DNA of 64,000 bases from an uncultured Acidobacterium sp. (GTDB lineage: Bacteria > Acidobacteriota > Vicinamibacteria > Vicinamibacterales > UBA2999). Location of the stretch: NCBI GenBank assembly GCA_964513235.1, contig CAZEMI010000017.1:13835-77834 (forward strand). Reading direction: 5' to 3'. A program made the translations under genes and the position numbers. Position 1 is the stretch's first letter; every line of letters starts with the position of its first letter. The notes under the pieces were generated by a model. It did not search any database. It was given only the letters and a program-made list of their open reading frames with translations, and was not told the origin of the DNA. Below, one piece after another: positions 4,377 to 57,050 of this stretch.

Positions 4377-4492
4377 TTGGGGTGTACAACTCAACGATAA
4401 TAACAAAATTTGGCCGGAATCGACCGCCTCCGCCAAGGCTTCGGCGGATTCTCTAAAGAAACCATTCCGCGTTTTCAGCGGTCAAACCTAGT

Positions 4493-5167
4493 ATGGGATC
4501 CATGAGGTCGTTGCTTATCTCGGCGGTAGCGGTCGCCATCGCCGGCGCCGGCTCGGTCACCGCGCAAAGCGATCCGGTCGTGCTCGCCGCGAAGGTGCAA
4601 CAGCGCTACAACGGTATCAAGGATTTCCAGGGCGATTTCGTCCAGAGCTATGAAGGCGGCGTGCTGCGCACCAAGACCAGCGAGCGCGGCACGCTGGCCA
4701 TCAAGCGTCCCGGACGCCTTCGTTTTACCTACACGAAACCGGAACGTAAGGAGTTCGTGTCGGACGGCGTTCGACTCTATACCCATCTGGTCGCAGACAA
4801 GCAGGTGATCGTGAGCCCGGCGCCCAGCGCGGATGACGGTGAGGTGCCGGCGATGTTTCTCGCCGGCCAGTCGGACCTCGCGCGGGACTACACCCCCAGC
4901 TTCACGCCACTGCCCGGAGCTGCAACCGGGCTGCTGACGCTCGAGCTGGTCCCGAAGAACAAGGCATCCGAGTTCGAATCGCTCGGCATCGGCCTCGATC
5001 CGAAGACGCTGCAGATCCAGTTCCTCACCGCGGTGGACAAACAGGGTGGCCGATCCTCGTTCGCCTTCAGTAACCTGAAGGAAAATCGGGGTTTGTCCGA
5101 TAAAGACTTCGAGTTTCGCATTCCGCGCGGCGTGGATGTGGTGACCCAAGGTGCACGAACGAAATAA
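4493..5167 (+). CDS. lolA: Outer-membrane lipoprotein carrier LolA
   Basis: 224 aa with a signal peptide (LLISAVAVAIAGAGSVTAQS). The sequence is LolA-like (YNGIKDFQGDFVQ...GTLAIKRPGRLRFTYTKPERKEFVSDG). Confidence 0.8.
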   Translation: MGSMRSLLISAVAVAIAGAGSVTAQSDPVVLAAKVQQRYNGIKDFQGDFVQSYEGGVLRTKTSERGTLAIKRPGRLRFTYTKPERKEFVSDGVRLYTHLVADKQVIVSPAPSADDGEVPAMFLAGQSDLARDYTPSFTPLPGAATGLLTLELVPKNKASEFESLGIGLDPKTLQIQFLTAVDKQGGRSSFAFSNLKENRGLSDKDFEFRIPRGVDVVTQGARTK

Positions 5168-7019: not shown

Positions 7020-7035
7020 TGAGGGCTTGAGGGCG

Positions 7036-37630: not shown

Positions 37631-38975
37631 TGCCAAACGCGCGAAGCTTTTTGTACAGGTTCGAGCGTTCCACGCCAAGCACTTCGGCGGTGCGCGACAT
37701 GTTCCCCTGCTGCGCGGCCAGCGTCTGCAGGATGTAGTCCTTCTCGAACCGATCGCGGGCTTCGGACAACGGCTGCACGGGCCCCGCCGCGGCCGGCGCC
37801 TCCGGCACCCCGTCGCGGCCGAGAAAGCCCACATCCTGCGCCGTGATGGTGTCGCCGCCGACAAAAATCAGCAGCTTCTCGATCACATTGCGCAACTCGC
37901 GGACGTTCCCCGGCCACGAGTGCTGCTGCAGGCGCGCCGCCGCTTCGGGTGCCAGCCGCTTCGGCCGCTTGCGATCCTCGGCGGCCAGCAGCGCGATGAA
38001 GTGCTCGGCCAGCAGCGGAATGTCCTGCTGCCGTTCCCGCAACGGCGGTACGAAGATCGGAATGACGTTCAACCGGAAGTACAAGTCTTCGCGGAACCGT
38101 CCCGCTCGAATCTCCGCCGGCAGATCCCTGTTGGTTGCCGCCAGCACGCGCACGTCGACCTTGATTCGCTGCGTGCCGCCGACCCGCTCCATCACCTGCT
38201 CCTGCAGCACGCGGAGCACCTTGGCCTGCGTTTTCAGGCTCATGTCGGCAATCTCGTCCAGGAAGATCGTGCCGCCGTCGGCCTGTTCGAATCGACCCGG
38301 CTTGTCCGCGACCGCCCCCGTAAAGGCGCCGCGCACGTGCCCGAACAACTCGGACTCAATCAACTCCTCCGGAATCGCGGCGCAGTTCACTTCGACGAAC
38401 GGCCCGCTCTTGCGCCGGCTGGTGTGATGGATGGTCCGCGCCACGAGCTCCTTGCCGGTGCCGCTTTCGCCGAGAATCAAGACCCGACCGTTGGTCGGGG
38501 CGGCGAGCGACACGTGGTCGCGCAGATGGCTCATCGCCGGGCTCTCGCCGACCATCGTGTACTGCTGCTGGCGGTCGACCTTGGCGCGCAGCACGCGGTT
38601 TTCGGCTTCGAGATCGCGCTGGCGCAGCGCGTTGCGCACCACCAGCACCGTCTTCTCGAGCGACAGCGGCTTCTCGATGAAGTCGAACGCGCCCATCTTG
38701 ATGGCGCGGACCGCGGACTCGATGTTGCCGTGGCCGGAGATGATCACCACCTGCGAATCGATCTGCCGCTCGCGCAGCCGCTGCAGCGTGGTCAGGCCGT
38801 CCAGGCCCGGCAGCCAGATGTCGAGCACCACCACGTCGAACGCCGCGCCGTTGGCCTTCTCGAGGCATTCTTCGCCGGTGCTGGCGGTGTCGACGTCGAA
38901 GCCTTCGTCCTGCAGGACCCCGCTGATCGACGAGCGCACGCCCGGTTCATCGTCGACGACGAGGATGGACGCCAT
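37608..38975 (-). CDS. ntrX: Sigma-54-dependent response regulator (NtrC/NtrX family)
   Basis: 455 aa with a REC domain (ILVVDDE...VVVLDIWLPGLDG), an AAA+ domain (GESGTGKELVA, GAFTGA) and a Fis-type HTH (GNMSRTAEVLGVERSNLYKKLRAFG). The start overlaps the kinase stop (TGATG). Confidence 0.85.
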   Translation of the reverse strand: MASILVVDDEPGVRSSISGVLQDEGFDVDTASTGEECLEKANGAAFDVVVLDIWLPGLDGLTTLQRLRERQIDSQVVIISGHGNIESAVRAIKMGAFDFIEKPLSLEKTVLVVRNALRQRDLEAENRVLRAKVDRQQQYTMVGESPAMSHLRDHVSLAAPTNGRVLILGESGTGKELVARTIHHTSRRKSGPFVEVNCAAIPEELIESELFGHVRGAFTGAVADKPGRFEQADGGTIFLDEIADMSLKTQAKVLRVLQEQVMERVGGTQRIKVDVRVLAATNRDLPAEIRAGRFREDLYFRLNVIPIFVPPLRERQQDIPLLAEHFIALLAAEDRKRPKRLAPEAAARLQQHSWPGNVRELRNVIEKLLIFVGGDTITAQDVGFLGRDGVPEAPAAAGPVQPLSEARDRFEKDYILQTLAAQQGNMSRTAEVLGVERSNLYKKLRAFGITPRGGT

Positions 38976-41257
38976 CAGGCCGGCAACTCGATGATAAACC
39001 GCGTGCCGGTGGGCACGTTGTCGGTGACGTCAATGCTGCCGCCGTGCTCGGCGACAATGCGCCGCACGATCGCGAGGCCCAGGCCGCTGCCGCGGCCCTT
39101 GGTCGAGTAGTACGGCAGGAACAATTTGTCGCGCTCGGCGGCGGGAATGCCGGGTCCGGTGTCGGCCACCACGATGCGCACCAGGCTGTTCGGCACGTCG
39201 CGCGCGGTCTCGATCACGATCGTGCCCTGCCGCTCCATCGCTTCGATCGCGTTGTCGATCAGGTTGATCATCACGCGCTTCATCTGCTCCGGATCGACGC
39301 GCACCTGGGTGACGGCCGGGTCGTAGTGCTTCTGGAATGCCACTGACCCGAACAGCCCGTCGTACAGCGACAAGGTGTGGGTGAGAAAGGCGTGGAGCTC
39401 GGTGGGCACCGCGCGCGGTGCCGGCATGCGCGCGAACTGCGAGAACTCGTCGACGAGCCCTTTCAGCGATTCGACCTCGCCGATGATGGTCGAGGTGCAC
39501 TCCTGCACGAGATCCTGGAGCGGCGGCGCCACGTCGCCGAGCTTGCGGCGCAGCCGCTCGGCCGACAGTTGAATGGGCGTCAGCGGATTCTTGATCTCAT
39601 GGGCCAGCCGGCGCGCCACTTCGCGCCACGCCGCCACCTTCTGCGCACGAATCAGCGGCGTCACATCGTCCACTACCAGCACCGTGCCGTCGAAGCTGCC
39701 GTCGGTGCCGGCCACGCGGGTGGCCGCCGCCACCACGTGACGCTCGCGGCCGTCGCGCACCAGCGCCACTTCCTGCGCAAAGGAATCCATCTTGGCGCGC
39801 GCGGCCTGGTCGAGCACCTCGTTCATCGGCGCGAGGTCGGGTCGCGCGAACACGTCGACCGCCGCGCTCCCGACCACGTCCGCCGTCACTTCGAGCAGCC
39901 GCATCGCCGAGGGGTTGATCGTGCCGATGCGTCCGGCGCGATCGATCGACACCACGCCGGTGGCAATCCGCTCGAGGATGGCTTCGATGTAGCGGCGGCG
40001 GCCTTCACCCTCTTCGTGCTTGCGTTCGAGATCGATGCCGGCGCGCTCGAGCCGCTTGCGCGTCTGCGACACTTCCGCGGCCATCGCATTGAAGGCCTCG
40101 ACCATTGATCCGAACTCATCGCTGCCTTCGTGCTCGATGCGATGATCGTAATGGCCGGCGCCAATTTCCTTGGCCGCTTCAGAGAGCAACTGCACCGGCC
40201 GGGTGATGCGCTTGGCGAGATACAGGCCCATCCACGTCGAGCCCACCAGAATCAACAGCGTGACCATGACGAAGAACGACACGTAGACGCCGGCCAGCGG
40301 TTGTTTCAGCACCCGCAGCTGCGTGTAGTCCTCGTAGGCCTTCGACATCCGGCGCGCCTGGTCCGCGAACTCGCCGGACAGGTACTCGCTGGTCACCACC
40401 ACGCCGGTAATCTGCCCCGCGGGAGTGCGCACCGGCGTCGCGACGTGGACGAGATCCCCACCGGCCGGGAGTTGATCGATCCGGCTCGGCGCCGCTTCGT
40501 CTCCGGAGGCGACCCGCGCCGCCAGCGGATCGGCGGAGGAGCGCGCCCACCCTTGCGGCATCGACGGCGAGGCGATGTCCACCACCGAGACCACGCTCAC
40601 CGGCTGACCGGGTTCGCGCACCGCGCGATACACCTGGACCATCACCACGCGCTGTCCCGTCACTTCCGGCGTGACGATCCGCTGCACGCGCGTCAGCTCC
40701 GCATCCGACAGGTCGACCGGGCTCAACGAGCGGGCGATGCGGGACGCCTGTTCGGTGACCAGCCGCTGCCGCTCCTGGTAGTAATCGCCGGCAATGCGGT
40801 TGGCGCCGCTGAGGATCTCCTCCATCGGCGCGTTGAACCAGCGATCGACGGCGGTCAGCACCACCCGGCTGCCGACGATCATCACCAGCACCGACGGAAT
40901 CACCGTCATGCCCAGCATGGCGAGCACGAGCTTGGCGCGGAAGCGGCCGAACGGCAGGCCGCGCCGCCCGTCCATCAATGACTTGATCACGTTGCGCGCC
41001 AGCACGAACACCAGCGCCAGCAGCATGGTGATGTTGGTCGCGGAAAGCGCGATCAACACCACTTCGGTGAGGAAATCCGGGGACAGCGTCGCCGTGCGAT
41101 CGGCCAGCCAGACGATGCCGCCGAGCGCGGCGAGCAGGATGACGATCCCGGCGAGGATCAGCGGCGGGTTGTCGCGAAACGGCCGGCGCGCGGGCGCCGC
41201 CGCCGCCGGCCTGACGGCCGGCCGCGACCCGGTACTGAGCGGCTTCGCGGTTGCCAC
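38975..41257 (-). CDS. ntrY: NtrY-like sensor histidine kinase (TM-HAMP-PAS-HisKA-HATPase)
   Basis: 760 aa with N-terminal TM helices, the H-box LAHEIKNPLTPIQLSAERL (as I recall, characteristic of NtrY) and a C-terminal ATPase (GTGLGLAIVRRIV). Confidence 0.8.
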   Translation of the reverse strand: MATAKPLSTGSRPAVRPAAAAPARRPFRDNPPLILAGIVILLAALGGIVWLADRTATLSPDFLTEVVLIALSATNITMLLALVFVLARNVIKSLMDGRRGLPFGRFRAKLVLAMLGMTVIPSVLVMIVGSRVVLTAVDRWFNAPMEEILSGANRIAGDYYQERQRLVTEQASRIARSLSPVDLSDAELTRVQRIVTPEVTGQRVVMVQVYRAVREPGQPVSVVSVVDIASPSMPQGWARSSADPLAARVASGDEAAPSRIDQLPAGGDLVHVATPVRTPAGQITGVVVTSEYLSGEFADQARRMSKAYEDYTQLRVLKQPLAGVYVSFFVMVTLLILVGSTWMGLYLAKRITRPVQLLSEAAKEIGAGHYDHRIEHEGSDEFGSMVEAFNAMAAEVSQTRKRLERAGIDLERKHEEGEGRRRYIEAILERIATGVVSIDRAGRIGTINPSAMRLLEVTADVVGSAAVDVFARPDLAPMNEVLDQAARAKMDSFAQEVALVRDGRERHVVAAATRVAGTDGSFDGTVLVVDDVTPLIRAQKVAAWREVARRLAHEIKNPLTPIQLSAERLRRKLGDVAPPLQDLVQECTSTIIGEVESLKGLVDEFSQFARMPAPRAVPTELHAFLTHTLSLYDGLFGSVAFQKHYDPAVTQVRVDPEQMKRVMINLIDNAIEAMERQGTIVIETARDVPNSLVRIVVADTGPGIPAAERDKLFLPYYSTKGRGSGLGLAIVRRIVAEHGGSIDVTDNVPTGTRFIIELPA

Positions 41258-42893: not shown

Positions 42894-43802
42894 GTGCTTT
42901 CACAACCGCTTTTAGATACGCAGTTCGACGGCCTGACACTGGTCCGTCGCGGCAAGGTACGCGACGTGTACGCTGCCGGCGACGCGTTGATCCTGGTCGC
43001 CACCGATCGCATCTCGGCCTTTGATTACGTGCTCGGGTCGGGCATCCCTGACAAGGGCCGCGTGCTCAACCAGCTGTCGGCCTTCTGGTTCGCACGCACC
43101 GGGCACATCGTCCCGAATCATGTGATCTCGACGCGGGTGACGGATTACCCCGCGGGCGCACGACGGTTTGCCGCCCAGCTCGAAGGCCGCTCCATGCTCT
43201 GCACGCGCACCACGCCGCTCCCGGTGGAATGCGTGGCGCGCGGCTATCTGTCGGGATCGGGCTGGAAGGATTACAAGGCCACCGGCGAGCTGTGCGGCAT
43301 TCCCCTCCCGGAGGGACTACGCGAATCGGATCGCCTCCCCACGCCGATCTTCACACCGGCCACGAAAGCGGAATCCGGCCACGACGAGAACATCAGCGAA
43401 GCCGCGGCGGCGGCCGTGGTCGGCGCCGAGCTGCTCGCGCGCCTCAAGCGCTCGACGATGGCGCTCTACGAGCACGGCGTGGCGCACGCGGACTCAAAGG
43501 GGATCATTCTCGCGGACACGAAGTTCGAGTTCGGGATCACGGACGCCGGCGAGTTGCTACTGATCGACGAAGTCATGACGCCGGACTCATCGCGCTACTG
43601 GCCGAAGGACGCCTATTCGCCCGGCGGCCCGCAACCCAGTTTCGACAAGCAGTACGTGCGGGACTATCTGGAGTCGATCACGTGGAACAAGCAACCCCCG
43701 GTACCCTCCCTGCCGGATGATGTCGTCCGTAACACGCGCGCCAAGTATCTCGACGCCTATCGCCGCCTCACGGGCAGGGAACTGGAAGTTGCCGTTGCAT
43801 AA
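42894..43802 (+). CDS. purC: Phosphoribosylaminoimidazole-succinocarboxamide synthase
   Basis: 302 aa (RGKVRDVYAAGDALILVATDRISAFD...ILADTKFEFG). Confidence 0.95.
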   Translation: MLSQPLLDTQFDGLTLVRRGKVRDVYAAGDALILVATDRISAFDYVLGSGIPDKGRVLNQLSAFWFARTGHIVPNHVISTRVTDYPAGARRFAAQLEGRSMLCTRTTPLPVECVARGYLSGSGWKDYKATGELCGIPLPEGLRESDRLPTPIFTPATKAESGHDENISEAAAAAVVGAELLARLKRSTMALYEHGVAHADSKGIILADTKFEFGITDAGELLLIDEVMTPDSSRYWPKDAYSPGGPQPSFDKQYVRDYLESITWNKQPPVPSLPDDVVRNTRAKYLDAYRRLTGRELEVAVA

Positions 43803-44013
43803 GCTGCTGGATCAATTGGTGTCTGAAATGGTGGCGCGCGGGGTTCACTACGAGGATGCCCGCCGTGAATTCGACAAGCGTTTCCTCACGACGGTGATCA
43901 ACAAGGCCGACGGCAATCTGTGCAAAGCGGCCGACACACTCGGCGTGCATCGCAACACGCTGACGCGCAAGATCAAGGAACTGAAGATCAAGGGCCGCTC
44001 GACCGGCGCATAA
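43789..44013 (+). CDS. Small Fis-type helix-turn-helix DNA-binding protein (start uncertain)
   Basis: The C-terminus GNLCKAADTLGVHRNTLTRKIKELKIKG is a classic Fis/NtrC-type HTH. The upstream part of the track ORF overlaps purC, so I chose the TTG at 43789 provisionally. Confidence 0.6.
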   Translation: MPLHKLLDQLVSEMVARGVHYEDARREFDKRFLTTVINKADGNLCKAADTLGVHRNTLTRKIKELKIKGRSTGA

Positions 44014-44179
44014 GCGAATCTCCTGAGGGGCGGTCGGCGGAAACCAGCCAGACCATTGGCGTGAAGCTGGGAAACTGGCCGATTACGGAACTGTTCTATA
44101 GTGTGTCACTTCGGCGCAAGTGTCACATCACGACCACGATACGGACCGCTGAATCACACGTTTTTCAGCAGCCCAGCTG

Positions 44180-44195
44180 TGGCGTCCCTCTTGCA
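44180..44195 (+). promoter_or_regulatory. Sigma-54 (-24/-12) promoter candidate
   Basis: TGGCGTCCCTCTTGCA matches TGGCACG-N4-TTGCW with exact GG...GC spacing. The -12 C lies 29 nt upstream of the ATG at 44223. Confidence 0.55.
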
Positions 44196-47900: not shown

Positions 47901-48793
47901 ACGAGGTAACGCGCGGCCCAATCGGGATACGGCGCCAGTTCCGGCCGACCCGAATGGGCCGGCATGTATCGGGTCAGTGCACCTTCTCTAAGGATGTCGA
48001 ACGTCGGCCCCATGTCGTTCACCACGGCGGCCACCAGCGGCAGATAGGGCGGCAAAGCCTTGGTCGTGTTCAGCGAGGCGATGTCGGGAGTGATGATGGC
48101 CGACATCGCTCCGGATGGTCCGATCGTCTTGGTATGCCGCCAACGCGTGAGGTAAAAGTGCTCGATGCCGAGCCGGGAAAACGACGGCTGAACGGGATTA
48201 TCCACCCAGATAGTGGCGTCATACGTCACCGTGCTCGCGCCAATTTGGTCGAGCATGTTCTCCACCGACACGTCGGCACGGCCGCTGCCGTCGTTGTAGC
48301 TGCGCACATCGAAATTGATGCGCAAGAACGGATGCGGGATCCCGCCGGCATTGGGCGCCACGACATGGCGCGTCTCCTGCACCAGCGGTCCCTTGAGCCA
48401 ATAGTCACCAGGCGCCGACGGGGCAACCGCGCTGTGAGGCGTGCCGTTGATCGACATGTCCACCGAAACGTTGCGAGGGATGGGCGTGAAATCGCCCAGC
48501 TCTGACGGCGCCGGGTAAATGGCGTAGTTGTTTTCGGCCGGGACCTGCACCGTGAGAATGGCAAACTTGATTGAACCGCCAGGCCAGCGGTTTTTGACGT
48601 CGGTCTGCGTGGTAAGCGATCCGACCTGAAGTCCATCGTAGGCCGAACCTTCTGGGACGGCTTGGCCGAACGTTGCCCAACCAGTACTCAAGTGGACCGT
48701 GCCTATGGGATCCGGCACCGCCGCAAACATGGCGCGGCTGACGAGAACCAACAACAGAAGTGCAACAACGCCGTAGTGAGCGCGACGGCTCAT
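44948..48793 (-). CDS. Large secreted multidomain protein: PcRGLX/YetA-like N-terminal region + TSP3-type Ca-binding repeats + Ig/cadherin-like (He_PIG-type) domains
   Basis: About 1281 aa from the ATG at 48793, with GGAGGA 8 nt upstream. A signal peptide (HYGVVALLLLVLVSRAMFAAV) leads into an N-terminal region (NRWPGGSIKFAIL) and a helical toroid-like region (AHQPSIAYVPYLLTGDRYYAEEMAFWANY). Asp-rich repeats follow (DNCPAVANPDQANHDPDAQGDACD, DNDLDGLNNEGFPN). C-terminal repeats include DGDTLTFTVTGLPQGLTW and DGDRLEFHVVTLPPGLEFD. Confidence 0.8.
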   Translation of the reverse strand: MSRRAHYGVVALLLLVLVSRAMFAAVPDPIGTVHLSTGWATFGQAVPEGSAYDGLQVGSLTTQTDVKNRWPGGSIKFAILTVQVPAENNYAIYPAPSELGDFTPIPRNVSVDMSINGTPHSAVAPSAPGDYWLKGPLVQETRHVVAPNAGGIPHPFLRINFDVRSYNDGSGRADVSVENMLDQIGASTVTYDATIWVDNPVQPSFSRLGIEHFYLTRWRHTKTIGPSGAMSAIITPDIASLNTTKALPPYLPLVAAVVNDMGPTFDILREGALTRYMPAHSGRPELAPYPDWAARYLVHKDIDQKRFVLANGDLSGSWPIHVREPEDGTSAHAGVGAENLVSLNLRPWLWLDDRAENLASCCGIDFVRGTPMPLGTGTENPVPGSGQSPLNPDNAHQPSIAYVPYLLTGDRYYAEEMAFWANYGMMKTSPENGVRGADGILGNDNETRGVAWALRNLVDAAAYYPDASPVRNYLRDKVTANLQWLDDYVHNQPATNPLKIPWIGFRPEPGMVAMWEMNYVAWAIDRASKQGFEGGLAHRDVIAKLQLDLFRNTPAYPRTSTLTNTLDFSQINGEVYPVGSQIPWGAPFTLQVAEFTGDPNDPDSWWAHNTPFTTLEQIRDATQGDPFNHRPYAGYYGPEARLNLMIGVEEGWPGAEDAHDYLFQFIGIDVAACGNLGNGDDRPDLACRAGWALDFYLAAPGGGEADGDGDGVFDAADNCPAVANPDQANHDPDAQGDACDDNDDNDSFDDAAEIAAGSDPLNAASTPEVCDTIDNDLDGLNNEGFPNTDGTDDADCIDTDDDNDGHSDVAEGLAGSDPLNAASTPEVCDAVDNDLDGLNNEGFPNNDNDDDADCVDDDDDNDGVPDADDPFPFDNTPPGDDVTVDTPQADITFDTITDPGTTLVTPTQVDPGSVPAGFSIAGLPAFNVTTTAKFSGPIVLCFNVSSLSLAEPQFALLRVLHGEGGVFVDRTVLPNDFATQKVCARVMELSPFVIASVVAVNGAPSVDPIAQQTSQEDMAIAPLVITGSDPDGDTLTFTVTGLPQGLTWTPGNNNITIAGTPTQADDVNVEVTVSDGTDSATTSFLWIVTAAPSQISLTNPDSQSNTEGEKVRLELQWSAPGSGNKHFKRPTFRAENLPRGLHIGRHDGVISGHVSRRGERGPEEVTVTMRLRGEEVSQTFLWTILPKNHAPRIKHLNDQESKVGQDLELKLSAFDQDGDRLEFHVVTLPPGLEFDPAGLIFGTPTGKGHYRAVVTVSDGHATDTCDFEWTIKAPKDDKPKK
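46261..46527. repeat. 93-bp near-identical direct duplication inside the giant gene (period 174 bp = 58 codons)
   Basis: 46261-46353 and 46435-46527 differ at 2 positions (GACCGCG versus GATCGTG). They encode AGSDPLNAASTPEVCDxxDNDLDGLNNEGFPN. Confidence 0.9.
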
Positions 48794-48833
48794 AAAACGA
48801 TCCTCCAAGGTTTGCGGTAGACGGCGGCGGCGT

Positions 48834-48849
48834 TGCAAAACACCTTCCG
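48834..48849 (-). promoter_or_regulatory. Weaker sigma-54 promoter candidate for the giant gene
   Basis: On the minus strand it reads CGGAAGGTGTTTTGCA. The GG/GC spacing is correct, the -12 element TTGCA is good and the -24 element is poor. The -12 C lies 42 nt upstream of the ATG at 48793. Confidence 0.3.
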
Positions 48850-48920
48850 TACATCGTTCAGGTAGGTTTCTGGGCCGGAACTAAGTGTCTTACGGGCGTT
48901 CGCCCGAGGAGGAGGGGTGG

Positions 48921-48946
48921 ATTTGGCAGACTTTTGTCTGCCAAAT
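48921..48946. promoter_or_regulatory. Perfect 11-4-11 palindrome, candidate enhancer (UAS) site
   Basis: ATTTGGCAGAC-TTTT-GTCTGCCAAAT. Further half-sites are GCAGACTT at 48995-49002 and GTCTGCC at 49075-49081. Confidence 0.5.
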
Positions 48947-49011
48947 GACTGCCGGAGGGGATCGCCGCTGCTCCGTTTCGGAACGCGATTGCGTGCAGAC
49001 TTCGAGCTCCA

Positions 49012-49025
49012 AATTGCGCGCAATT
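49012..49025. promoter_or_regulatory. Perfect 14-bp palindrome AATTGCGCGCAATT
   Basis: It is self-complementary and lies between the GCAGAC sites and the plus-strand sigma-54 promoter. It could be an operator or a bending-protein site; function is unknown. Confidence 0.35.
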
Positions 49026-49085
49026 CCAAGCGCTGCCGTAGATTACGGGTGAGTTCCTACCTGTTGCGCGGAAAGTCTGCCGCGA

Positions 49086-49101
49086 TGGCGACATCTTTGC
49101 T
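49086..49101 (+). promoter_or_regulatory. Sigma-54 (-24/-12) promoter candidate for the EBP-EPS operon
   Basis: TGGCGACATCTTTGCT matches TGGCACG-N4-TTGCW with exact spacing. The -12 C lies 76 nt upstream of the ATG at 49176. Confidence 0.6.
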
Positions 49102-49175
49102 TAAGGCGGAGCTGCGCCGCCGGGTCTCCGGCTGCCCCCCCAGTAATTGAAACTTTCGGAGACGGAGTCGATTCG

Positions 49176-50243
49176 ATGCGATTCGATGGAACCGCCCAAC
49201 TTTTGGGCGAGAGTGCGGTTATTCGTGAGCTGCGGGATGAAATAGGGCGCGTCGGCGGCACCGACGCGAAGATCCTCATCACCGGCGAAAGCGGCTCCGG
49301 TAAGGAAGTGGTCGCGCGACAGCTCTGGGCGAACAGTAAGCGCTCGAGCCGGCCGTTTGTCGCCGTCAACTGCGCGGGCCTGCCCGAAACCCTGCTCGAA
49401 TCCGAGCTATTCGGACATGTCCGCGGCAGCTTTACCGGTGCCTTCCGCGACAAGCCCGGCAAGTTGGAAATCGCCGACGAAGGCACCTGCTTCATGGATG
49501 AAATCGGGGAAATGACCCTGCGCATGCAGGGCCTGCTGCTCCGCTTCTTCGAGACCGGCGAAATTCAAAAGGTCGGCGCACACCGCTCGGGCAGCCGCCT
49601 GGACGTCCGCACCATCGCGGCGACCAACGCCAACCTGCCCGAAATGATTCAGAAGGGGCTTTTCAGAGAAGACCTCTTCTACCGCCTCAACGTGATTCAC
49701 CTGATTGTGCCGTCCCTACGCGAGCGGAAGGACGACCTGCCGGTGCTCATCGAGCATTTCGTGGCGCGGCTCTCGCAACCCGGCATCCACGCGGCGCGGG
49801 CGATCTCGCCGGCCGCCGTGGCTCTGCTGAAGGAATACCACTGGCCTGGCAACGTCCGCGAACTGCAGAACGTGATCGAGCGGATGCTCATCCGTTGCCG
49901 CACCGATGTGATCGGCGGCGACGACGTGCCACTCAAGATTCGCGAAAGCCAGCCGCTGACGCCGGCGCCGTTCCGTGAACGCCGGCGGACGATCGTGGAC
50001 GACCTCTATCAGCGGATGACCTCCGAACAGCATTCGTTCTGGACCACCGTGTATCCGCTATACATGCAGCGCGAGATCACCCGCACCAGCGTGCGCGACC
50101 TCGTGCGCCGCGGCTTACAGGACTCCAACGGCAGCTACAAGGTGGTCGCGCGCCTGTTCAACATGGAACAGAACGACTACAAGAAGTTCCTCAATTTCCT
50201 CCGCAAGCATCACTGCCAGCCGTCGTATCGGGAGTTCCGATGA
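49176..50243 (+). CDS. Sigma-54 enhancer-binding protein lacking any N-terminal sensory/receiver domain
   Basis: 355 aa. The AAA+ core begins within about 10 residues of the start ([39 protein letters not shown]). It has a GAFTGA variant (GSFTGA) and ESELFGH. The C-terminal HTH-like segment ([27 protein letters not shown]) diverges from the Fis type. A GGAG Shine-Dalgarno sequence lies 8 nt upstream. Confidence 0.88.
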
Positions 50244-50860
50244 TCAACCGTCTCATCGGCGCCGGTGTCGTGCTCGCGGTCGCCTCGACGGGTGCTCACG
50301 CCCAAGAGGCCCGCCAATCGGAGCATCCGGTGGTGGCGGCCGCCGGCGGCAGCGCTCCCGTGGCGCCTGGGCTGCCATCCGGCTACGTGATCGGCGCCGA
50401 CGATGTGCTGTCGATCGTGTATTGGCGTGAAAAAGAGATGTCGGCCGAGGTGACCGTGCGGCCCGACGGCAAAGTGGCGCTGCCGCTCATCAACGACCTG
50501 AGTGCGGCCGGCCTCACGCCGGAAGCCTTCCGCGACAAAGTGATCGAAGCGGCGCGCCGTTTCGTGGAAGACCCGAACCCGACGGTGATGGTCAAGGAGA
50601 TCAACAGCCGCCGCGTGTTCATCACCGGGCAAGTCGAGAAGCCGGGACCGTATCAGTTGAATCACTCGGTGACAGTGCTGCAACTGATCGCCATGGCCGG
50701 CGGCCTGAAGGAATTCGCGCGCGGCAAGAACATCACCGTGCTCCGGACCGAGGGTGGCCAGCAGGTGGTGCACCGCTTCAACTACCAGGACGCGTTGATC
50801 CGCAAGAATCTCCAGCTGAACATCGAGCTGAAGCCGGGCGACACGATTCTCGTCCCCTAA
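50240..50860 (+). CDS. Polysaccharide export protein (Wza/Poly_export + SLBB type)
   Basis: 206 aa with a signal peptide ([13 protein letters not shown]), [14 protein letters not shown]...[14 protein letters not shown] and a SLBB-like C-terminus. The ATGA overlaps the EBP stop. Confidence 0.85.
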
Positions 50861-50879
50861 CCGGATTGACGGTTTGGAC

Positions 50880-52157
50880 ATGCGCCCCCGCCTCCCTGTT
50901 CCGTTGCTGGCCCTTGTCGTCGCCCTGTCGGTGGCGGGTGCGAACGCGCAACAGGCTCGGAGACCGTTCAGAACCGAGTTCGGCCCAGGCGAGCGAGACG
51001 AGCAGCGCGCGGATCAGCTGGTGCTGACGGGCGGCACCTACGCCGGGGCCGACGACACGTCGCGATTGGCGGGGGCCGCGTTGCTCGATGAAACGCTGCA
51101 AAGCGGACGCATGCATCAAGGCGGCAACGTGTCGCTGCGGTATGTCCGGCGCCGCCCGAGACTCTCGCTGTCCGCGTCCGGCGGGTCGTCAGTGCGCTAT
51201 TACCATTCGCTGAATCGCATCGGCACGCAGCGCCACTCGGTGTCGGCCTCGGGCGAGTGGGTCGCCAGCCGCCAGCTGTCGTTTCAGTTCGGACAGGATG
51301 TCAGCTATTCCCCGTCGTACCACCTGTCGTTCGCCGCCGCACCGGACATCGGTGCCGAGGCGCCGGCCGATCCGGGATCGCTCGACTACGACCTGAGTAG
51401 GAGCAAGCAGTTCATGCTCGGGTCGTTCGCCAGCGCCAGGTACGTCCTGAGCCCGAGCCGTGAGATGACGGCCGGCTACGGCCTGAGCTACACGAACTAT
51501 CTGACCGCGCAACAGCCCGACTTCGGCATCCAGCAGGCCTCGTTTGGTTTCTCGCAGCGGCTGGCCACTGGCGTGGCCCTCAAGTTGGGGTACGGCGTTG
51601 GCACGGGCACGGGCACGGGCCTTGGCGAGGGTGTGCGCCAGATCATCGATGCGGGCGTGGCGTTCGATCGATCGATCTCGATCTCGCCGCGAACCATCGT
51701 CGGGTTCAACTCGGGCTCCGCGATCGTCAACACCGACGGCGGCCGCCAGGTGGAGCTGATTGGCAATCTGAATGTCCGCCGGCGGCTGAGCCCGCGCTGG
51801 ACGGCGTCGATCGCGTATCAACGCGGCCTCATGGCGATCGACGGCGTGCCGAATCCGCTCACGACCAACACCATGACCGCCGACGTGAGCGGGTTCCTCG
51901 GCATGACGACGAGCGTCACCATCCGGCCGGTCTATACGTGGGGGGCCGACGTGAACGACGCGACCCAATCTTTTCGCAACAGCACGAGCATGGCCCGCGT
52001 GCAGACGGCACTGGGACGCCACTTGGCGGCATTCGCCGAATACATCTACTACGACCATCGGTTCGGCGCCATCGTCGGGCTTCGCCCGTCGCTGGCGGTT
52101 GACACGCGCCGGCACGGATTGCGGACCGGCGTGACGTTATGGTCGCCGCTGCGCTAG
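50880..52157 (+). CDS. Putative outer-membrane beta-barrel protein of EPS loci
   Basis: Signal peptide MRPRLPVPLLALVVALSVAGANAQ, alternating beta-strand-like pattern and a C-terminal ...GLRTGVTLWSPLR. It resembles the uncharacterised barrel protein of PEP-CTERM-type loci (from memory). Confidence 0.6.
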   Translation: MRPRLPVPLLALVVALSVAGANAQQARRPFRTEFGPGERDEQRADQLVLTGGTYAGADDTSRLAGAALLDETLQSGRMHQGGNVSLRYVRRRPRLSLSASGGSSVRYYHSLNRIGTQRHSVSASGEWVASRQLSFQFGQDVSYSPSYHLSFAAAPDIGAEAPADPGSLDYDLSRSKQFMLGSFASARYVLSPSREMTAGYGLSYTNYLTAQQPDFGIQQASFGFSQRLATGVALKLGYGVGTGTGTGLGEGVRQIIDAGVAFDRSISISPRTIVGFNSGSAIVNTDGGRQVELIGNLNVRRRLSPRWTASIAYQRGLMAIDGVPNPLTTNTMTADVSGFLGMTTSVTIRPVYTWGADVNDATQSFRNSTSMARVQTALGRHLAAFAEYIYYDHRFGAIVGLRPSLAVDTRRHGLRTGVTLWSPLR

Positions 52158-52170
52158 CGAAGGAGACGTC

Positions 52171-53727
52171 ATGCTGCCCGGCCGCAAATACACGCCCGAA
52201 GACATTGCCGCGATTGCGTGGCGCCGCAAGTGGATGGTCATCTCGGTCGTCGCGATGCTGACGACGGCGGCGATCACAGCGTCGATGCGGCTGCCGGACC
52301 TGTATCGATCCGAGACCCTGATTCTGGTCGTGCCGCAGCGCGTGCCGGAAAGCTACGTGCGCTCGACGGTCACGATGCGGATCGAGGATCGCCTGCGCTC
52401 ACTGCGCCAGCAGATCCTGAGCCGCAGCAATCTCGAGCGCATCATCAACGATTTCCAGCTCTTCGACGAGGACGTCAAGAAGCGGCCGATGGAAGTGATT
52501 GTCGAGGAGATGCGCCAGCGCGTCATCGTCGACACCGTGCGCGAAGACACCTTCAAGGTGTCCTATATCTCCGAGGTGCCGCGGACGGCGATGATTGTCA
52601 CCGACCGGCTGGCGGCGATGTTCATCGAGGAGAACCTGCGCGATCGCGGGCAGCTGGCCGACGGCACGAACGACTTCCTCGAATCGCAGCTCGCCGGCGC
52701 GCGCCAGCGCCTGGTCGGACACGAACAAAAGCTCGAAGCCTACCGGCGGCTCAACTCGGGCGAGCTGCCGTCGCAGCTCCAGTCGAACCTGCAGGTGATC
52801 CAATCCACGCAGAACCAGATTCAAAACCTGAACGAGTCGATCAACCGCGATCAGGATCGCCGCCTGGTGCTCGAGCGATCGCTGGAGGATGCCAATTCCA
52901 GCACGCCCATCGAGCCCGGCAACGCCAGGAACACGGTGCTGGACACGCCCGAAGTGCGCGCCATCGATCAGCTCGAGATCGCGCGCGGCGAGCTGCGCGA
53001 CCTGCTGCTGCGACTCAGGCCCGAACATCCCGACGTGGTGGCGAAGACCAGGACGATCAGGCAGCTCGAAGCCAAGGTCCAGGGCACCGCTTCGAACGGG
53101 ACCGCCCCCGGCCGCAACGAGCCCTACGTCTCCGGCGCCGAGCTGGTGAGGCGCGCGCGCGGCCGCCAGACGCAGCAGGAAATGGCCAAGCTCGACGAGC
53201 AGATCGCGGGCAAAGAGGCCGACATGCGCGACCTGCGGCTGCGCATGAGCGACTACCAGCGCCGCGTCGACGCCGTGCCCGGCCACGAGTCGGAGCTGAT
53301 CGGCCTGATGCGCGACTACGACACGCTGCAGAAGGTCTACGCGGATCTGCTGGCCAAGAAAGAGAACTCGCAGATCTCGGCCAACCTCGAACGCCAGCAG
53401 GTGGGTGAACAGTTCAAGGTGATCGATCCGGCGCGCCTGCCGGAGGCACCGTTCAGCCCGAACCGGCTGCGCATCGCGCTGATCGCCGCGGCGCTGGGAC
53501 TGTTCCTCGCGGTCGGGGTGCTCGGCGTCATCGAATATCGCGACATGACGCTGCGCACCGAAGACGAGATCGTGCGCACGCTGGTGCTGCCGGTGATCGC
53601 CGCCATTCCGCTGATGGCCGCGGTTGCGGACACACGGCGGCGCCAGCGCAATCAACTCCTGATGGGCGCGGCGACGGCCATGACCCTCGTCGGCCTGACC
53701 GTCGCGGTCTGGCGGATGGTGCAGTAG
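52171..53727 (+). CDS. Polysaccharide chain-length determinant (Wzz/GumC/PCP family)
   Basis: 518 aa with an N-terminal Wzz motif and TM (AWRRKWMVISVVAMLTTAAI...YRSETLILV), a long coiled-coil periplasmic region and a C-terminal TM. Confidence 0.85.
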   Translation: MLPGRKYTPEDIAAIAWRRKWMVISVVAMLTTAAITASMRLPDLYRSETLILVVPQRVPESYVRSTVTMRIEDRLRSLRQQILSRSNLERIINDFQLFDEDVKKRPMEVIVEEMRQRVIVDTVREDTFKVSYISEVPRTAMIVTDRLAAMFIEENLRDRGQLADGTNDFLESQLAGARQRLVGHEQKLEAYRRLNSGELPSQLQSNLQVIQSTQNQIQNLNESINRDQDRRLVLERSLEDANSSTPIEPGNARNTVLDTPEVRAIDQLEIARGELRDLLLRLRPEHPDVVAKTRTIRQLEAKVQGTASNGTAPGRNEPYVSGAELVRRARGRQTQQEMAKLDEQIAGKEADMRDLRLRMSDYQRRVDAVPGHESELIGLMRDYDTLQKVYADLLAKKENSQISANLERQQVGEQFKVIDPARLPEAPFSPNRLRIALIAAALGLFLAVGVLGVIEYRDMTLRTEDEIVRTLVLPVIAAIPLMAAVADTRRRQRNQLLMGAATAMTLVGLTVAVWRMVQ

Positions 53728-53731
53728 CCCC

Positions 53732-54733
53732 ATGTACGAGTCCTTTTACGGCCTTCGTGAGCGCCCGTTCGAGCTGACGCCGAATCCGCGCTTCCTGTTC
53801 ATGACGCCCCGCCATCGCGAGGCGTTGACCACGCTGGTGTACGGACTCACGGCGCGCACCGGCATCGCCTTGCTGGTTGGCGAAGCCGGCACCGGCAAGA
53901 CCACGCTCGTCCACGCCGCGCTGCAATCGCAACGCACGCAGGAAGGCATGGCCGTGTACCTGAACAATCCGTCGCTGACGCGCCAGGAGTTCCTCGAATT
54001 CCTCGCCGCCGGATTCGGCTTGAGCGCCGACGCGGCACGGTCGAAGACGCGGTGCCTCGCCGACCTCACCGACTTGCTGGTGTCGCGGCATTCGGCCGGC
54101 GGCATGACCGCGCTCGTGATCGACGAAGCACAATGCCTCCCGGACGACCTGCTCGAGGAAGTGCGGCTGCTCGCCAACATCGAGTCCGCGTCGGAGAAGC
54201 TGCTCTCGATCGTACTCGCGGGCCAGCCGGAGGTGGCGACGCGGCTCAGCCAGCCGTCGCTGCGCCAGTTGAAGCAACGCATCGGCTTGCGGTGCGCGCT
54301 CGCGGCGCTGGACCTGCAGAACACGAGTGCCTACATTGCCGCGCGCGTGCGCATCGCCGGCGGTGAGGCGGCGCAGCTGTTCACGCCCGAGGCGGTGTGC
54401 GAGATCCAGGAGCGCTCGCGCGGCATCCCGCGAACGATCAGCGTGATTTGCGACAACGCGCTGGTCTCGGGCTTTGCGCTCGACCGCAAGCAGATCGATC
54501 GCGAACTCATCGTCGAAGTCTGCGCGGACTTCGACTTCGCCCTGCCCGCCGCTGACGAACCACCGCCGAGGACGGCCGCCGACCTGCTGCCCGCAGTGCG
54601 GCCGGAGCCGGCGGTGCCGTCGCCCCCTGCGGCGGGCACCGTTCCTCGACCTGGAGATGAGCTACTCGCGCGCCTGGCCCGCATCCGCGGCATGGCGGGC
54701 GCAGCCGAAGAGGCGGATGGGACACAGACCTGA
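53732..54733 (+). CDS. ExeA-like AAA ATPase of EPS loci
   Basis: MYESFYGLRERPFELTPNPRFLF..., Walker A GEAGTGKTT and Walker B LVIDEAQ, with a Pro-rich C-terminus. Confidence 0.85.
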   Translation: MYESFYGLRERPFELTPNPRFLFMTPRHREALTTLVYGLTARTGIALLVGEAGTGKTTLVHAALQSQRTQEGMAVYLNNPSLTRQEFLEFLAAGFGLSADAARSKTRCLADLTDLLVSRHSAGGMTALVIDEAQCLPDDLLEEVRLLANIESASEKLLSIVLAGQPEVATRLSQPSLRQLKQRIGLRCALAALDLQNTSAYIAARVRIAGGEAAQLFTPEAVCEIQERSRGIPRTISVICDNALVSGFALDRKQIDRELIVEVCADFDFALPAADEPPPRTAADLLPAVRPEPAVPSPPAAGTVPRPGDELLARLARIRGMAGAAEEADGTQT

Positions 54734-54735
54734 CT

Positions 54736-55656
54736 ATGGCTCGACTCGCTGATGCATTACAGCGCGCCAATCGGACGCGCATGGAACAGGACGGGCCACC
54801 CCCGGCGCCGCCGCCGGCGGCGGAGGAAACGTCGCCGGTCGTGATGCGGCCCCGCGCCGCCGAACGGCCGGCCGCCGCCCACGGTTCGGCGTCGCTGCTC
54901 GGCTTTCCGAAAGGGGAGCCGCAGACAGCCGGATGGCGCTCCAATCCCGAGCTGGTCGGAAAGCTCGTGGGCACCGATGGCGTGTCTGCGGGGGCACTCG
55001 AGCAATACCGAAAACTTGCCGCCACCCTGCATCACACGCAGGAGGAACGCGGCATCCAGGTGGTGATGACCGCGAGCTCGTTGCCGGGCGAAGGCAAGAG
55101 CCTCACCGCCGCCAACCTCGCGCTCACCTTCAGCGAGTCCTACCAGCGGCGCGTGCTGCTGGTCGACGCCGACTTGCGCCGGCCGACGGTGCAGCGCCTG
55201 TTCGACGTGGCCACCATTGACGGCCTCGATGCCGGACTCAAGGCCGAGCACGACCGGCCGATGCCGCTCACGCGGATGTCGGAACGGCTCTGGGTGCTGC
55301 CGGCGGGACGGCCCGACCCCGATCCGCTGAGCGGGCTCACGTCGGATCGCATGCGGCGCTTCGTCCAGGAGGCGCGCACCTTGTTCGACTGGGTGATCAT
55401 CGACACCCCCCCGGTGTCGCTGCTGCCCGACGCAAACCTGCTGGCGGCCAACGTGGATGGCGTCTTGCTCGTGGTCCGTTCCGGCAAGGCGCCCTTCCAG
55501 CTGGTGAAGCGGACCGTCGACACCATCGGTCACGACCGCATCCTGGGCATCGTGATGAACGCCGTGGACTTCAGGCATGACCGCAACGCCGGCGGCTACT
55601 ACGAGTACTACGGTTACGGCTACGGCTACGGCCATTACGGAGCGGGGAAGAAGTAG
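54736..55656 (+). CDS. BY-kinase (CpsD/CapB-type tyrosine autokinase)
   Basis: Walker A SSLPGEGKS, Walker A' VLLVDADLRRP, Walker B DWVIIDTPP and a C-terminal Tyr cluster YYEYYGYGYGYGHYG. Confidence 0.85.
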   Translation: MARLADALQRANRTRMEQDGPPPAPPPAAEETSPVVMRPRAAERPAAAHGSASLLGFPKGEPQTAGWRSNPELVGKLVGTDGVSAGALEQYRKLAATLHHTQEERGIQVVMTASSLPGEGKSLTAANLALTFSESYQRRVLLVDADLRRPTVQRLFDVATIDGLDAGLKAEHDRPMPLTRMSERLWVLPAGRPDPDPLSGLTSDRMRRFVQEARTLFDWVIIDTPPVSLLPDANLLAANVDGVLLVVRSGKAPFQLVKRTVDTIGHDRILGIVMNAVDFRHDRNAGGYYEYYGYGYGYGHYGAGKK

Positions 55657-55661
55657 GGGCC

Positions 55662-57050
55662 ATGGCGAAGGGGCTGATTCAAGACGCGACCTGGCGGTCG
55701 TCGACACTGATCGTCATGGAGAGCGCGCTCATTCTGGGCGCCGTGGCGACCGCGGTCTATGTGCAGGTCGGCGTCGCGACCGGCACCGCCGGCCTGGCCG
55801 GCCTGCTGCCAAAGGCCTTCGTGATCGTGATCGTCTGCCAGCTGTGCCTGTATTGGGGCGATCTCTACGACCACCCGCATTCGAGCGGCAGCTACGTCGA
55901 GCTGATGATTCGCACGCTACAGGCGCTCGGCGCGACCTGCCTCTTGCTGGCCGCGATCTATGCGTTGTTCCCCGATCTGGTGATCGGCCGCGGTGTGCTG
56001 ACCGTCGTCGCGCTGCTCACCACGAGCGGCGTCATCAGCTGGCGGATGATGTTCGGGTGGCTGTCGCGCCGCGTCGGACCGCGCGAGCGGCTGTTGATGG
56101 TCGGCGCGAGCAGCGCCGGCCTGGCGCTCGCCCGCGAGCTGCACGACAACGACGAGGCGGGCGTGCAGATCGTCGGCGTGGTCGACAACGACGGCGCCAC
56201 CGCGAGCGACCCGAGGCTGCTCTGGCTTGGCGGGATTGAAGAGATTCCATCGATCGTCCGCGCTCGCGGCGTCGATCGCGTGGTCGTCAGCCTCGCCGAT
56301 GCCCGCGGCAAGCTGCCCATGGACAAGATGCTCGAGATGAAGCTCGATGGGGTGTCGTTCGACTATCTCGCCTCGGTCTACGAGGAATACACCGGCAAGA
56401 TCGCCGTCGAGAATCTTCGTCCGAGCTGGTTGATCTTCTCGCCCGGATTTCGCAAGACGCGCCGCCTGCTGGCCCTCAAGCGGGCGCTCGATGTGGTGTC
56501 GGCACTGGCCGGGTTGATCCTGTCGGCGCCGCTTCTGGTGGGGCTCGCGGCGATCATCAAGATCACCTCGCCGGGGCCGGTGTTCTATTCACAGCGGCGC
56601 GTCGGCCGCGACTCGCGCATCTTCACCGTCTACAAGCTGCGGTCGATGTGCCACGACGCCGAGCGGCAGACCGGTCCCGTGTGGGCGGCACGCGCCGGCG
56701 ACACGCGGATCACCTGGATCGGCCGTTTCATGCGCCGCACGCGCCTCGACGAGATCCCGCAGTTCTGGAACATCCTGATTGGCAACATGAGCTTCGTCGG
56801 GCCGCGGCCGGAGCGGCCCGAGTTCGTGCGGTCACTCTCCGAGCAGATTCCGTTCTATCGCCAGCGGCACGTGATCAAGCCCGGCCTCACGGGCTGGGCG
56901 CAGGTGCGCTACACCTACGGCGCCACGGTGGAAGAGGCGATGGAGAAACTCCAGTACGACCTCTACTACATCAAGCACCTGTCGGTGACGTTCGACCTGT
57001 TCATCATCTTCGAGACCATCAAGACCGTCCTGTTGCGGCGGGGGAATTAA
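55662..57050 (+). CDS. Undecaprenyl-phosphate sugar phosphotransferase (WbaP/EpsB-type initiating enzyme)
   Basis: 462 aa with N-terminal TM helices, a Rossmann-like linker and the Bac_transf core (KRALDVV...PGPVFYSQRRVG..FTVYKLRSM...DEIPQFWNILIGNMSFVGPRP). Confidence 0.9.
   Translation: MAKGLIQDATWRSSTLIVMESALILGAVATAVYVQVGVATGTAGLAGLLPKAFVIVIVCQLCLYWGDLYDHPHSSGSYVELMIRTLQALGATCLLLAAIYALFPDLVIGRGVLTVVALLTTSGVISWRMMFGWLSRRVGPRERLLMVGASSAGLALARELHDNDEAGVQIVGVVDNDGATASDPRLLWLGGIEEIPSIVRARGVDRVVVSLADARGKLPMDKMLEMKLDGVSFDYLASVYEEYTGKIAVENLRPSWLIFSPGFRKTRRLLALKRALDVVSALAGLILSAPLLVGLAAIIKITSPGPVFYSQRRVGRDSRIFTVYKLRSMCHDAERQTGPVWAARAGDTRITWIGRFMRRTRLDEIPQFWNILIGNMSFVGPRPERPEFVRSLSEQIPFYRQRHVIKPGLTGWAQVRYTYGATVEEAMEKLQYDLYYIKHLSVTFDLFIIFETIKTVLLRRGN

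Follow-up and report, generated by a model that had tools for sequence, protein, structure and literature searches.

We analyzed the intergenic spacer at positions 48794-49175 of a 64 kb stretch of DNA (the window) from an uncultured Acidobacterium sp. of the Vicinamibacterales. The spacer separates a gene for a large secreted protein from the divergent gene for a predicted σ54 activator, or bacterial enhancer-binding protein (EBP), and a preliminary description had read it as a divergent control region in which back-to-back σ54 promoters flank a GCAGAC palindrome. Comparison with about 120 related loci from Acidobacteriota and Vicinamibacterales supports that description in part: judged by sequence conservation, the spacer is a genuine control region that a group of soil Acidobacteria shares. 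The reading that we favor, and consider fairly probable, is that of a bidirectional σ54-dependent control region built around one enhancer, in which the adjacent EBP would bind the dyad and activate both its own operon and the secreted-protein gene. All the sequence features that had been listed were found in their places when the sequence was read and the repeats were rechecked; their positions are given in Table 1.

Table 1. Features of the spacer and its surroundings, in window coordinates unless a related locus is named.
Feature	Position	Strand	Basis
Large secreted protein, 1281 aa	44948..48793	-	signal peptide, thrombospondin-type-3 and He_PIG Ig-like repeats
Probable σ54 promoter of the secreted-protein gene, CGGAAGGTGTTTTGCA	48834..48849	-	close-clade conservation
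Distal activator site (candidate enhancer), perfect 11-4-11 palindrome ATTTGGCAGAC-TTTT-GTCTGCCAAAT	48921..48946	.	sequence read, repeat search
Dyad core GCAGAC-TTTT-GTCTGC	48926-48941	.	conserved part of the palindrome
Middle half-site GCAGACTT, isolated	48995..49002	.	sequence; alignment of close relatives
14-bp palindrome AATTGCGCGCAATT, midway from enhancer to promoter	49012..49025	.	sequence; weak conservation
Promoter-proximal half-site AAAGTCTGCC (including GTCTGCC, 49075-49081)	49072..49081	.	sequence and comparison
Predicted σ54 (-24/-12) promoter of the activator/polysaccharide-export operon, TGGCGACATCTTTGCT	49086..49101	+	sequence match, conservation
σ54 activator (EBP), 355 aa, without N-terminal regulatory domain	49176..50243	+	Pfam, homolog alignment
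Polysaccharide export/biosynthesis genes, likely operon body	50240..57050	+	TIGR03027, TIGR03007, TIGR03015, TIGR03018, TIGR03013
Companion genes in related loci (examples)	L036 8453-9154; L025 6750-8387; L072 6591-7838

The dyad and the plus-strand promoter across orthologous loci

The center of the dyad lies 86 bp from the GG of the minus-strand element and 152 bp from the T of TGGC in the plus-strand promoter. Within the window, sequence statistics alone are only suggestive, because the heptamer GGCAGAC is not enriched (13 occurrences against 12.2 expected) and palindromes also occur in simulated sequence (two perfect inverted repeats with arms of at least 11 nt and a spacer of at most 8 nt, against 0.65 in Markov simulations); the significance of the dyad comes from its conservation. 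The full dyad occurs once in the window and is therefore not a dispersed repeat. Since window-wide enrichment was found neither for GGCAGAC nor for the dyad, no regulon can be defined inside the window.

To assess conservation, species-representative genomes were scanned with the C-terminal domain of the EBP, which yielded 80 loci, and the upstream regions were lined up on the σ54 element. In 67 of 81 sources the 3.5 kb ahead of the EBP gene contained a strict promoter, and the promoter set comprised 79 strict plus-strand promoters within this distance of EBP orthologs, from 66 loci. When a dyad was defined by at least 8 of 12 matches to GCAGAC-N4-GTCTGC with a spacer made up entirely of A and T, one was present 100-200 bp upstream of 51 of the 79 promoters (51 of the 66 loci), compared with 1.35% of random zones. 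Better dyads, with at least 10 of 12 matches, numbered 46 in 1.37 Mb, and 24 of them fell within the promoter-upstream zones, which represent about 0.6% of the sequence. The distances from dyad to promoter range from 100 to 182 bp and cluster at 129-160 bp, and no clean 10.5-bp periodicity, as expected for helical phasing, was seen in the distance list. Alignment on the promoter gave the conserved core AGAC-TTTT-GTC(T/C) (logo gGcaGACTTTTGTCtgC) within a conserved 16-bp form, GCAGAC-W4-GTCTGC, and at the divergence of these loci the DNA between the motifs is unalignable. The earlier proposal that the GCAGAC dyad is an upstream activator site is supported by dozens of orthologous loci, in which the dyad behaves as such a site at enhancer distance.

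The plus-strand promoter, TGGCGACATCTTTGCT, has the GG-N10-GC arrangement and fits TGGC-N7-TTGCW exactly, being one of two such matches in the window. It lies 90 nt before the activator ATG at 49176, which is preceded by GGAG Shine-Dalgarno motifs, and the predicted transcription start near 49111 would give a leader of about 64 nt. Its conserved form is TGGCGAC-N4-TTTGC(T/A), and the consensus across 51 loci is GTGGCGAC-TTC-YTTGCAC. Among ten sequences of the close clade (described below) the element is invariant, TGGCGACA-N3-TTGC, and stands 72-119 nt before the ATG. Such strong conservation in orthologous upstream regions supports the earlier assignment of a σ54 promoter on this strand.

According to a contrary explanation, the palindromes and half-sites would have arisen by chance in a GC-rich spacer or be left over from a repeat element. 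It draws on the lack of heptamer enrichment, on the rate of 11-nt-arm palindromes (about 0.65 per shuffled window) and on the poor conservation of the middle half-site and the 14-bp palindrome. We regard it as extremely improbable, since the dyad and the proximal site keep both their position and their sequence over dozens of species-level genomes in which the intervening DNA is unalignable, and since a sequence unique in the window is no dispersed repeat. Chance is the best reading for the middle half-site at 48995-49002 and is refuted in the case of the dyad, the proximal half-site and the plus-strand promoter.

Other identities for these elements were considered and rejected. A scan of 48500-49500 for σ70 promoters found none, and a terminator scan of the same interval returned two terminator-like matches, both within coding sequence and at the level expected from shuffling, so the palindrome was discarded as a terminator or σ70 element. 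Inspection also ruled out the dyad as a σ54 site in its own right (TGGCAGAC...), as its spacing fails GG-N10-GC, and the 14-bp palindrome as an IHF site, as it does not match WATCAANNNNTTR and is weakly conserved. That the spacer is the longest non-coding stretch of the window is plausible; other apparent gaps hold open reading frames (ORFs), as at 57.0-57.9 kb.

The activator and the operon behind the promoter

The first gene downstream of the plus-strand promoter had been described as an EBP, and the protein evidence agrees. Pfam Sigma54_activat (PF00158) matches residues 10-176 (E=7e-62) and AAA_lid_14 residues 182-261; because the former match begins at residue 10, the protein has no N-terminal sensory domain. 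Across 73 homologs there is no variation in the GSFTGA loop (residues 84-89) or in the Walker A and Walker B motifs, which are characteristic of the AAA+ domain of EBPs, and the top PDB matches of this domain are ZraR, NtrC, FleQ and PspF, with VpsR also among the closest. Homologs are 63-98% identical, all of about 355 aa, and come from Acidobacteriota/Vicinamibacterales.

The putative DNA-binding domain is near-invariant as well: a C-terminal block, SFW..VYP....REI.R...R....GL....G.YK.V...FN, is unchanged or nearly so in the homologs. Pfam HTH_8 does not match this domain, and a PDB sequence search with it returned a single, insignificant match. An AlphaFold2 model built from 73 sequences predicts five helices over residues 271-355 with a predicted local distance difference test score (pLDDT) of about 90, and the last two of these match the Fis/NtrC helix-turn-helix when aligned by eye (GxYKxVAxxFNxxxxxYKxFLxFLRK). 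The domain is therefore putatively a conserved, atypical helix-turn-helix of the Fis-like kind. Its near-invariance parallels that of the dyad, and a conserved EBP gene behind its own promoter fits the autoregulation that had been suggested, with binding of the site by its product predicted from the sequence comparison. Nothing was found that ties to the dyad the small Fis-type protein which had been named as another candidate binder. A stand-alone Fis-family helix-turn-helix protein of at most 98 aa is encoded at 43717-44013 of the window, just after a purC-like gene (42894-43802).

The EBP gene is, from the annotation of its neighbors, the head of an XrtA/PEP-CTERM-type polysaccharide export operon. 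The products that follow it are a Wza-like exporter, an uncharacterized protein of 427 aa (50874-52157), a chain-length determinant, an XrtA-associated ATPase, a tyrosine autokinase, a TIGR03013 priming glycosyltransferase and a FemAB-type XrtA-associated protein; the ORF between the priming transferase and the FemAB-type gene, at 57.0-57.9 kb, looks from its sequence like a polysaccharide deacetylase. The order EBP, exporter, 427-aa gene, chain-length determinant, ATPase and kinase is kept in nearly all of the 80 loci. As this conservation indicates, the ancestral, conserved target of the control region is the activator/polysaccharide-export operon.

A side observation concerns the start of the EBP gene, where an exact tandem duplication of CGATTCGATG (two copies, 49169-49188) spans the start codon. 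Loci L089 and L081 also have the upstream copy, and the second copy codes for the conserved MRFDG N-terminus.

The close-relative footprint and the divergent secreted-protein gene

An alignment of ten sequences combined the spacers of the window, L001 and L002 with those from seven further contigs, whose EBPs are 85-98% identical. The alignment shows a diverged, indel-rich background with four conserved islands, namely the two promoters, the dyad and the proximal site. In L084, whose EBP is 88% identical, both arms of the dyad have changed symmetrically to GCAGAT-ATTT-ATCTGC (alignment columns ~176-195), so that dyad symmetry is retained, as it should be if a symmetric dimer reads the site. 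In its putative recognition-helix region (ARRFNMDQGDYKK) the L084 EBP differs by L->R and E->D/N->G, and the changes in site and protein may represent co-variation, in a single case.

The half-site beside the -24 element, for its part, belongs to a conserved promoter-proximal site. In the window, GTCTGCC (49075-49081) lies 4 nt upstream of the T in TGGC, and the longer match, AAAGTCTGCC, is the complement of GGCAGACTTT in the dyad. The sequence AAAAGTC(T/C)(T/G)C is kept in most of the ten close-clade sequences. About half of the loci have full proximal sites, such as GCAGACAAATGTCTGC and GCTGACAAAATTCTCC, approximately 22-23 bp before the T of TGGC, usually with an AAAW spacer and in an orientation opposite to that of the distal site. 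Many relatives have both halves of this second dyad, a member of the same family, of which the window keeps the right half alone.

The two remaining repeats of the spacer fared differently. The middle half-site, GCAGACTT, occurs only in the window and in L089, a 98%-identical relative; it is probably a chance match, and the comparison gives it no standing as a functional site. Relatives of 88-98% identity keep the 14-bp palindrome AATTGCGCGCAATT almost whole, L085 and L001 have a degenerate version of it (TTTCGCGCAAAA), and L002 and L088 lack it; the 51-locus alignment shows it at no fixed position. With an almost whole copy only in relatives of at least about 88% identity, it is weakly conserved, and the comparison lends it little support as a control element. 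Conservation of the spacer in relatives, a check proposed in the preliminary description, favors the dyad, the proximal half-site and the plus-strand promoter and, within the close clade, the minus-strand element; the middle half-site is not conserved and the 14-bp palindrome only weakly so.

A further small palindrome, TCCG-TTT-CGGA, lies at 48972-48982, about 45 bp downstream of the dyad. It is kept in the closest relatives, and L084 has at the same position CTCA-CTTT-TGAG, which is palindromic still.

On the other side of the spacer, only the close clade (the window, L001, L002 and L081-L089) has the gene for the 1281-aa secreted protein in divergent orientation to the EBP gene. The protein has no PEP-CTERM tail, its C-terminus reading ...KAPKDDKPKK. 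The candidate promoter of this gene, CGGAAGGTGTTTTGCA, has its -12 C 42 nt before the ATG at 48793. Its GG-N10-GC spacing is correct and its -12 element, TTGCA, is perfect, with a -24 flank, CGGAAG, that matches TGGCAC at three of six positions. The minus-strand pattern CGG(A/T)A-N6-TTTTGCA (TGCAAAA-N7-CCG on the plus strand) retains GG-N10-GC in all ten close-clade sequences, which upholds the earlier report of a -24/-12-like element in front of the divergent secreted-protein gene. In the nine sequences where it was located automatically the element lies 36-43 nt before the ATG; in L088, where the regular expression picked another TGCAAAA, inspection of the alignment by eye gave the element as CGGTAGGCATTTTGCA. 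Across these loci the secreted protein is only 47-79% identical and the spacer around the element has diverged; the promoter-like block is thus better conserved than the gene behind it.

It could still be that only the plus-strand promoter is σ54-dependent, and that the secreted-protein gene uses another sigma factor, the TTTTGCA...CCG block being an operator or some other element. We consider this somewhat improbable. The three-of-six match of CGGAAG to TGGCAC speaks for it, as do a simple promoter scan that gave no minus-strand match of at least 9/11 here and the confinement of the divergent arrangement to the close clade. Set against these are the exact 10-nt spacing of GG and GC and the invariance of TTTTGCA in all ten sequences while the flanking spacer and the protein diverge, the constant distance from element to ATG (36-43 nt), and the lack of any σ70-type promoter in 48500-49500. 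Control of the giant secreted protein from the same region, as had been proposed, would be specific to this one lineage, and the target that is conserved is the activator operon.

Wider use of the module, proposed mechanism and known systems

In distant clades a stretch of 0.8-3 kb separates the EBP gene from the same enhancer and promoter upstream of it. In distant Vicinamibacterales (L020-L076) the module precedes two small PilZ-domain proteins encoded directly ahead of the EBP, one of which scores above the Pfam cut-off while the other is weak, and the first gene is often that of a 416-546-aa protein whose GGDEF-like C-terminus is below threshold (examples in Table 1). The position of these PilZ and GGDEF-like genes ahead of the EBP suggests that in these relatives the sensor-less EBP may receive a cyclic di-GMP (c-di-GMP) input. 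Some loci contain extra pairs of dyad and promoter, for example L003 at 10487 and L040 at 10914.

An exact search of metagenomes with the composite pattern GCAGAC-W4-GTCTGC-N(116-146)-TGGC-N7-TTGC found 33 loci, at least 16 of them upstream of the EBP family, of PilZ/GGDEF-like companions or of homologs of the 427-aa gene. Because metagenome loci also lie ahead of other genes, the motif marks a small regulon that extends beyond autoregulation. In L090, L100, L104, L112 and L115 an exact GCAGACTTTTGTCTGC dyad and a TGGCGGC(C/T)GACTTGCA promoter stand upstream of ORFs with a common N-terminus, and the longer contigs among them (L090, L104 and L115) show these ORFs to be homologs, about 26% identical, of the 427-aa protein of the operon, which points to a separate regulon member. 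In L097 (2764-7909) the dyad and promoter precede ORFs that include a 1273-aa protein (4088-7909) with a signal-peptide-like N-terminus, unrelated to the 1281-aa protein of the window; by eye, the region resembles a frameshifted alpha/beta-hydrolase-like ORF with a secreted protein after it. Large secreted proteins may be recurring targets of the module.

The mechanism that we propose is as follows. Dimers of the Fis-like helix-turn-helix of the activator would bind the dyad, where the AAA+ ring would assemble and loop to the σ54 holoenzyme held in a closed complex at either promoter, using ATP via the GSFTGA loop to open the promoter DNA. The activator would thereby turn on its own operon and, divergently, the secreted protein, and because it is the first gene of its own target operon, the arrangement would form a switch for matrix production with positive feedback. 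As for the proximal site, it may help to position the activator, or it may cap the feedback in the manner of the low-affinity 'governor' sites at glnAp2. Since the EBP has no sensory domain, its activity would be controlled in trans, for which PilZ proteins and c-di-GMP offer a lead from the distant relatives.

Several observations weigh against the proposed bidirectional, self-activating region. A dyad above threshold is missing from 15 of the 66 loci, and the orthologous loci are mutually related, so that the enrichment counts are not independent. The window holds just half of the proximal site, and this site is centered about 15 bp upstream of the T of TGGC (about 40 bp upstream of the predicted start), a position that is unusual for an activator and could equally be that of a repressor operator. 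On the minus strand, the -24 flank CGGAAG is poor with respect to TGGCAC and is documented in a single clade. No homologs of the PilZ/GGDEF-like companion proteins were found in the window, so the idea of control in trans cannot be transferred to it directly. Finally, another regulator could own the dyad, for instance the NtrX-like EBP encoded at 37608-39029 of the window.

This last point can be put more generally: the dyad would belong to a different protein (an NtrX- or PrsR-type EBP, or a repressor), and the adjacent EBP would be only a target or would act from solution. The presence of an NtrY/NtrX-like pair 8 kb away, its NtrX-like member having a canonical HTH_8, is consistent with such an assignment, as are a proximal motif copy placed where repressors usually act and a C-terminal domain of the adjacent EBP that Pfam does not recognize as a helix-turn-helix. 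We nevertheless consider it quite unlikely. The motif accompanies the EBP family in more than 50 loci and in the metagenome matches, whatever the other neighbors; apart from the AAA+ core, no part of the EBP is more conserved than the C-terminal domain, which is confidently modeled as a helical, helix-turn-helix-like fold; and the 6-4-6 geometry of the dyad, with its A/T spacer, resembles the NtrC enhancer consensus (PMC4987338).

Binding by the adjacent EBP can also be extended to a broader conjecture, which we put forward tentatively and regard as rather unlikely to hold as formulated. The locus would represent an undescribed matrix switch of the Vicinamibacterales, in which a sensor-less EBP with its own type of DNA-binding domain heads a positive-feedback operon and reads GCAGAC-W4-GTCTGC both at the enhancer and at a site touching the -24 element, the latter serving as a feedback limiter. 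The activator would be gated by co-transcribed PilZ anti-activators, in the way that PspA acts on PspF, and its regulon would include polysaccharide export genes as well as an outer-membrane protein and giant secreted proteins peculiar to individual lineages.

The overall design, an EBP enhancer with σ54 promoters, is already known from other bacteria, and the EBP of the window falls below the cut-off of every named NCBIfam EBP equivalog. The ZraR system (zraP-zraSR) of E. coli and Salmonella has two divergent σ54 promoters, activator sites in the shared spacer and an autoregulated operon (PMC4987338). The spacer resembles it in the divergent layout of its predicted promoters, the shared sites and the predicted autoregulation of the activator. 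ZraR, however, has a receiver domain and a ZraS kinase and serves envelope and zinc stress genes, whereas the EBP of the window has no regulatory domain and would control polysaccharide export. It scores 245.1 bits against the ZraR model NF007689, whose cut-off is 760, and with no receiver domain it falls outside that family.

Another activator without a regulatory domain is PspF, whose activity is set in trans by PspA (PMC4987338). The EBP of the window shares its composition of an AAA+ σ54 domain and a C-terminal DNA-binding domain, putative here, with no sensory domain, and the PspF model aligns with it end to end. Its score against that model (TIGR02974) is 253.4 bits, below the cut-off of 443.55, and its neighbors are polysaccharide export genes, which places it outside the PspF family. 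The upstream activating sequence also differs, and no pspA-like gene is adjacent. The pspF gene is transcribed from a σ70 promoter under negative autoregulation, whereas the EBP gene of the window sits behind its own predicted σ54 promoter.

A parallel in biological context is the 'PEP-CTERM box' of PrsR in Proteobacteria, where a σ54 promoter and an upstream motif are found at exopolysaccharide loci and before secreted proteins (Haft et al. 2006, PMC1569441). Motif 1 of PrsR includes TTTACA at a distance of about 50 nt (range 32-92) between it and the σ54 motif, and other motifs and regulators were predicted outside Proteobacteria (PMC1569441). The likeness lies in a σ54 promoter and activator motif tied to XrtA/PEP-CTERM-type exopolysaccharide loci. 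PrsR differs in having a receiver domain and a PrsK kinase, whereas the EBP of the window has no receiver; the motif of the window is GCAGAC-W4-GTCTGC at 130-170 bp, and its divergent protein has no PEP-CTERM tail. Against the PrsR model TIGR02915 the EBP scores 262.7 bits, with a cut-off of 502.6, and aligns only over the AAA+ part (model positions 140-392), so it is not a PrsR. Nor is the site a PEP-CTERM box, as both motif and spacing depart from TTTACA at about 50 nt.

The NtrC enhancer consensus consists of hexamer inverted repeats with an A/T-rich spacer (PMC4987338). The region of the window is like that of glnAp2 in its inverted hexamers, its A/T-rich spacer, a Fis-type helix-turn-helix dimer as predicted reader and a position more than 100 bp upstream of a -24/-12 promoter. 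It differs in half-site sequence, in length (16 bp here versus 17 bp) and in having a single strong site instead of a pair. Both regions have extra and weaker sites nearer the promoter, known as 'governor' sites at glnAp2; here the proximal site directly abuts the -24 element. The window EBP also has a likeness to FleQ, VpsR and Myxococcus EpsI/Nla24, which are EBP-family regulators of matrix polysaccharide genes. These regulators bind c-di-GMP themselves, and VpsR works with σ70; they possess N-terminal domains, whereas the putative c-di-GMP input here would come through separate PilZ proteins.

Full-text literature searches found no description of this module in Acidobacteria. The Vicinamibacterales are abundant soil bacteria, mostly uncultured, whose regulation is essentially unstudied, and the locus supplies for them a cis-motif, a candidate cognate activator and a conserved set of exopolysaccharide and matrix targets, a trait relevant to soil aggregation and desiccation survival. 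The motif can be used at once for regulon prediction in metagenome-assembled genomes. A sensor-less, self-activating EBP with PilZ companions would, moreover, provide a testable model for c-di-GMP gating σ54 transcription through partner proteins. For one non-proteobacterial lineage, the locus answers the expectation of Haft et al. 2006 (PMC1569441).

Two further observations in the window concern elements of the same general kinds. A second good σ54-type element, TGGCGTCCCTCTTGCA, lies at 44180-44195 on the plus strand, about 28 nt before a 224-aa receiver-domain gene (ATG 44223, stop 44897), and direct GTGTCAC repeats at 44103-44109 and 44120-44126, 17 bp apart, are found about 55-75 bp upstream of it; this motif is unlike the GCAGAC dyad. 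The C-terminus of the receiver protein shows RxxxR and D-x-G-x-G-G features, a putative resemblance to PilZ. The sole other perfect palindrome with 11-nt arms, GCCATTGGCTG-N8-CAGCCAATGGC at 4167-4196, is located within a 338-bp spacer between divergent ORFs at 3031-4119 (minus strand) and 4457-5167 (plus strand).

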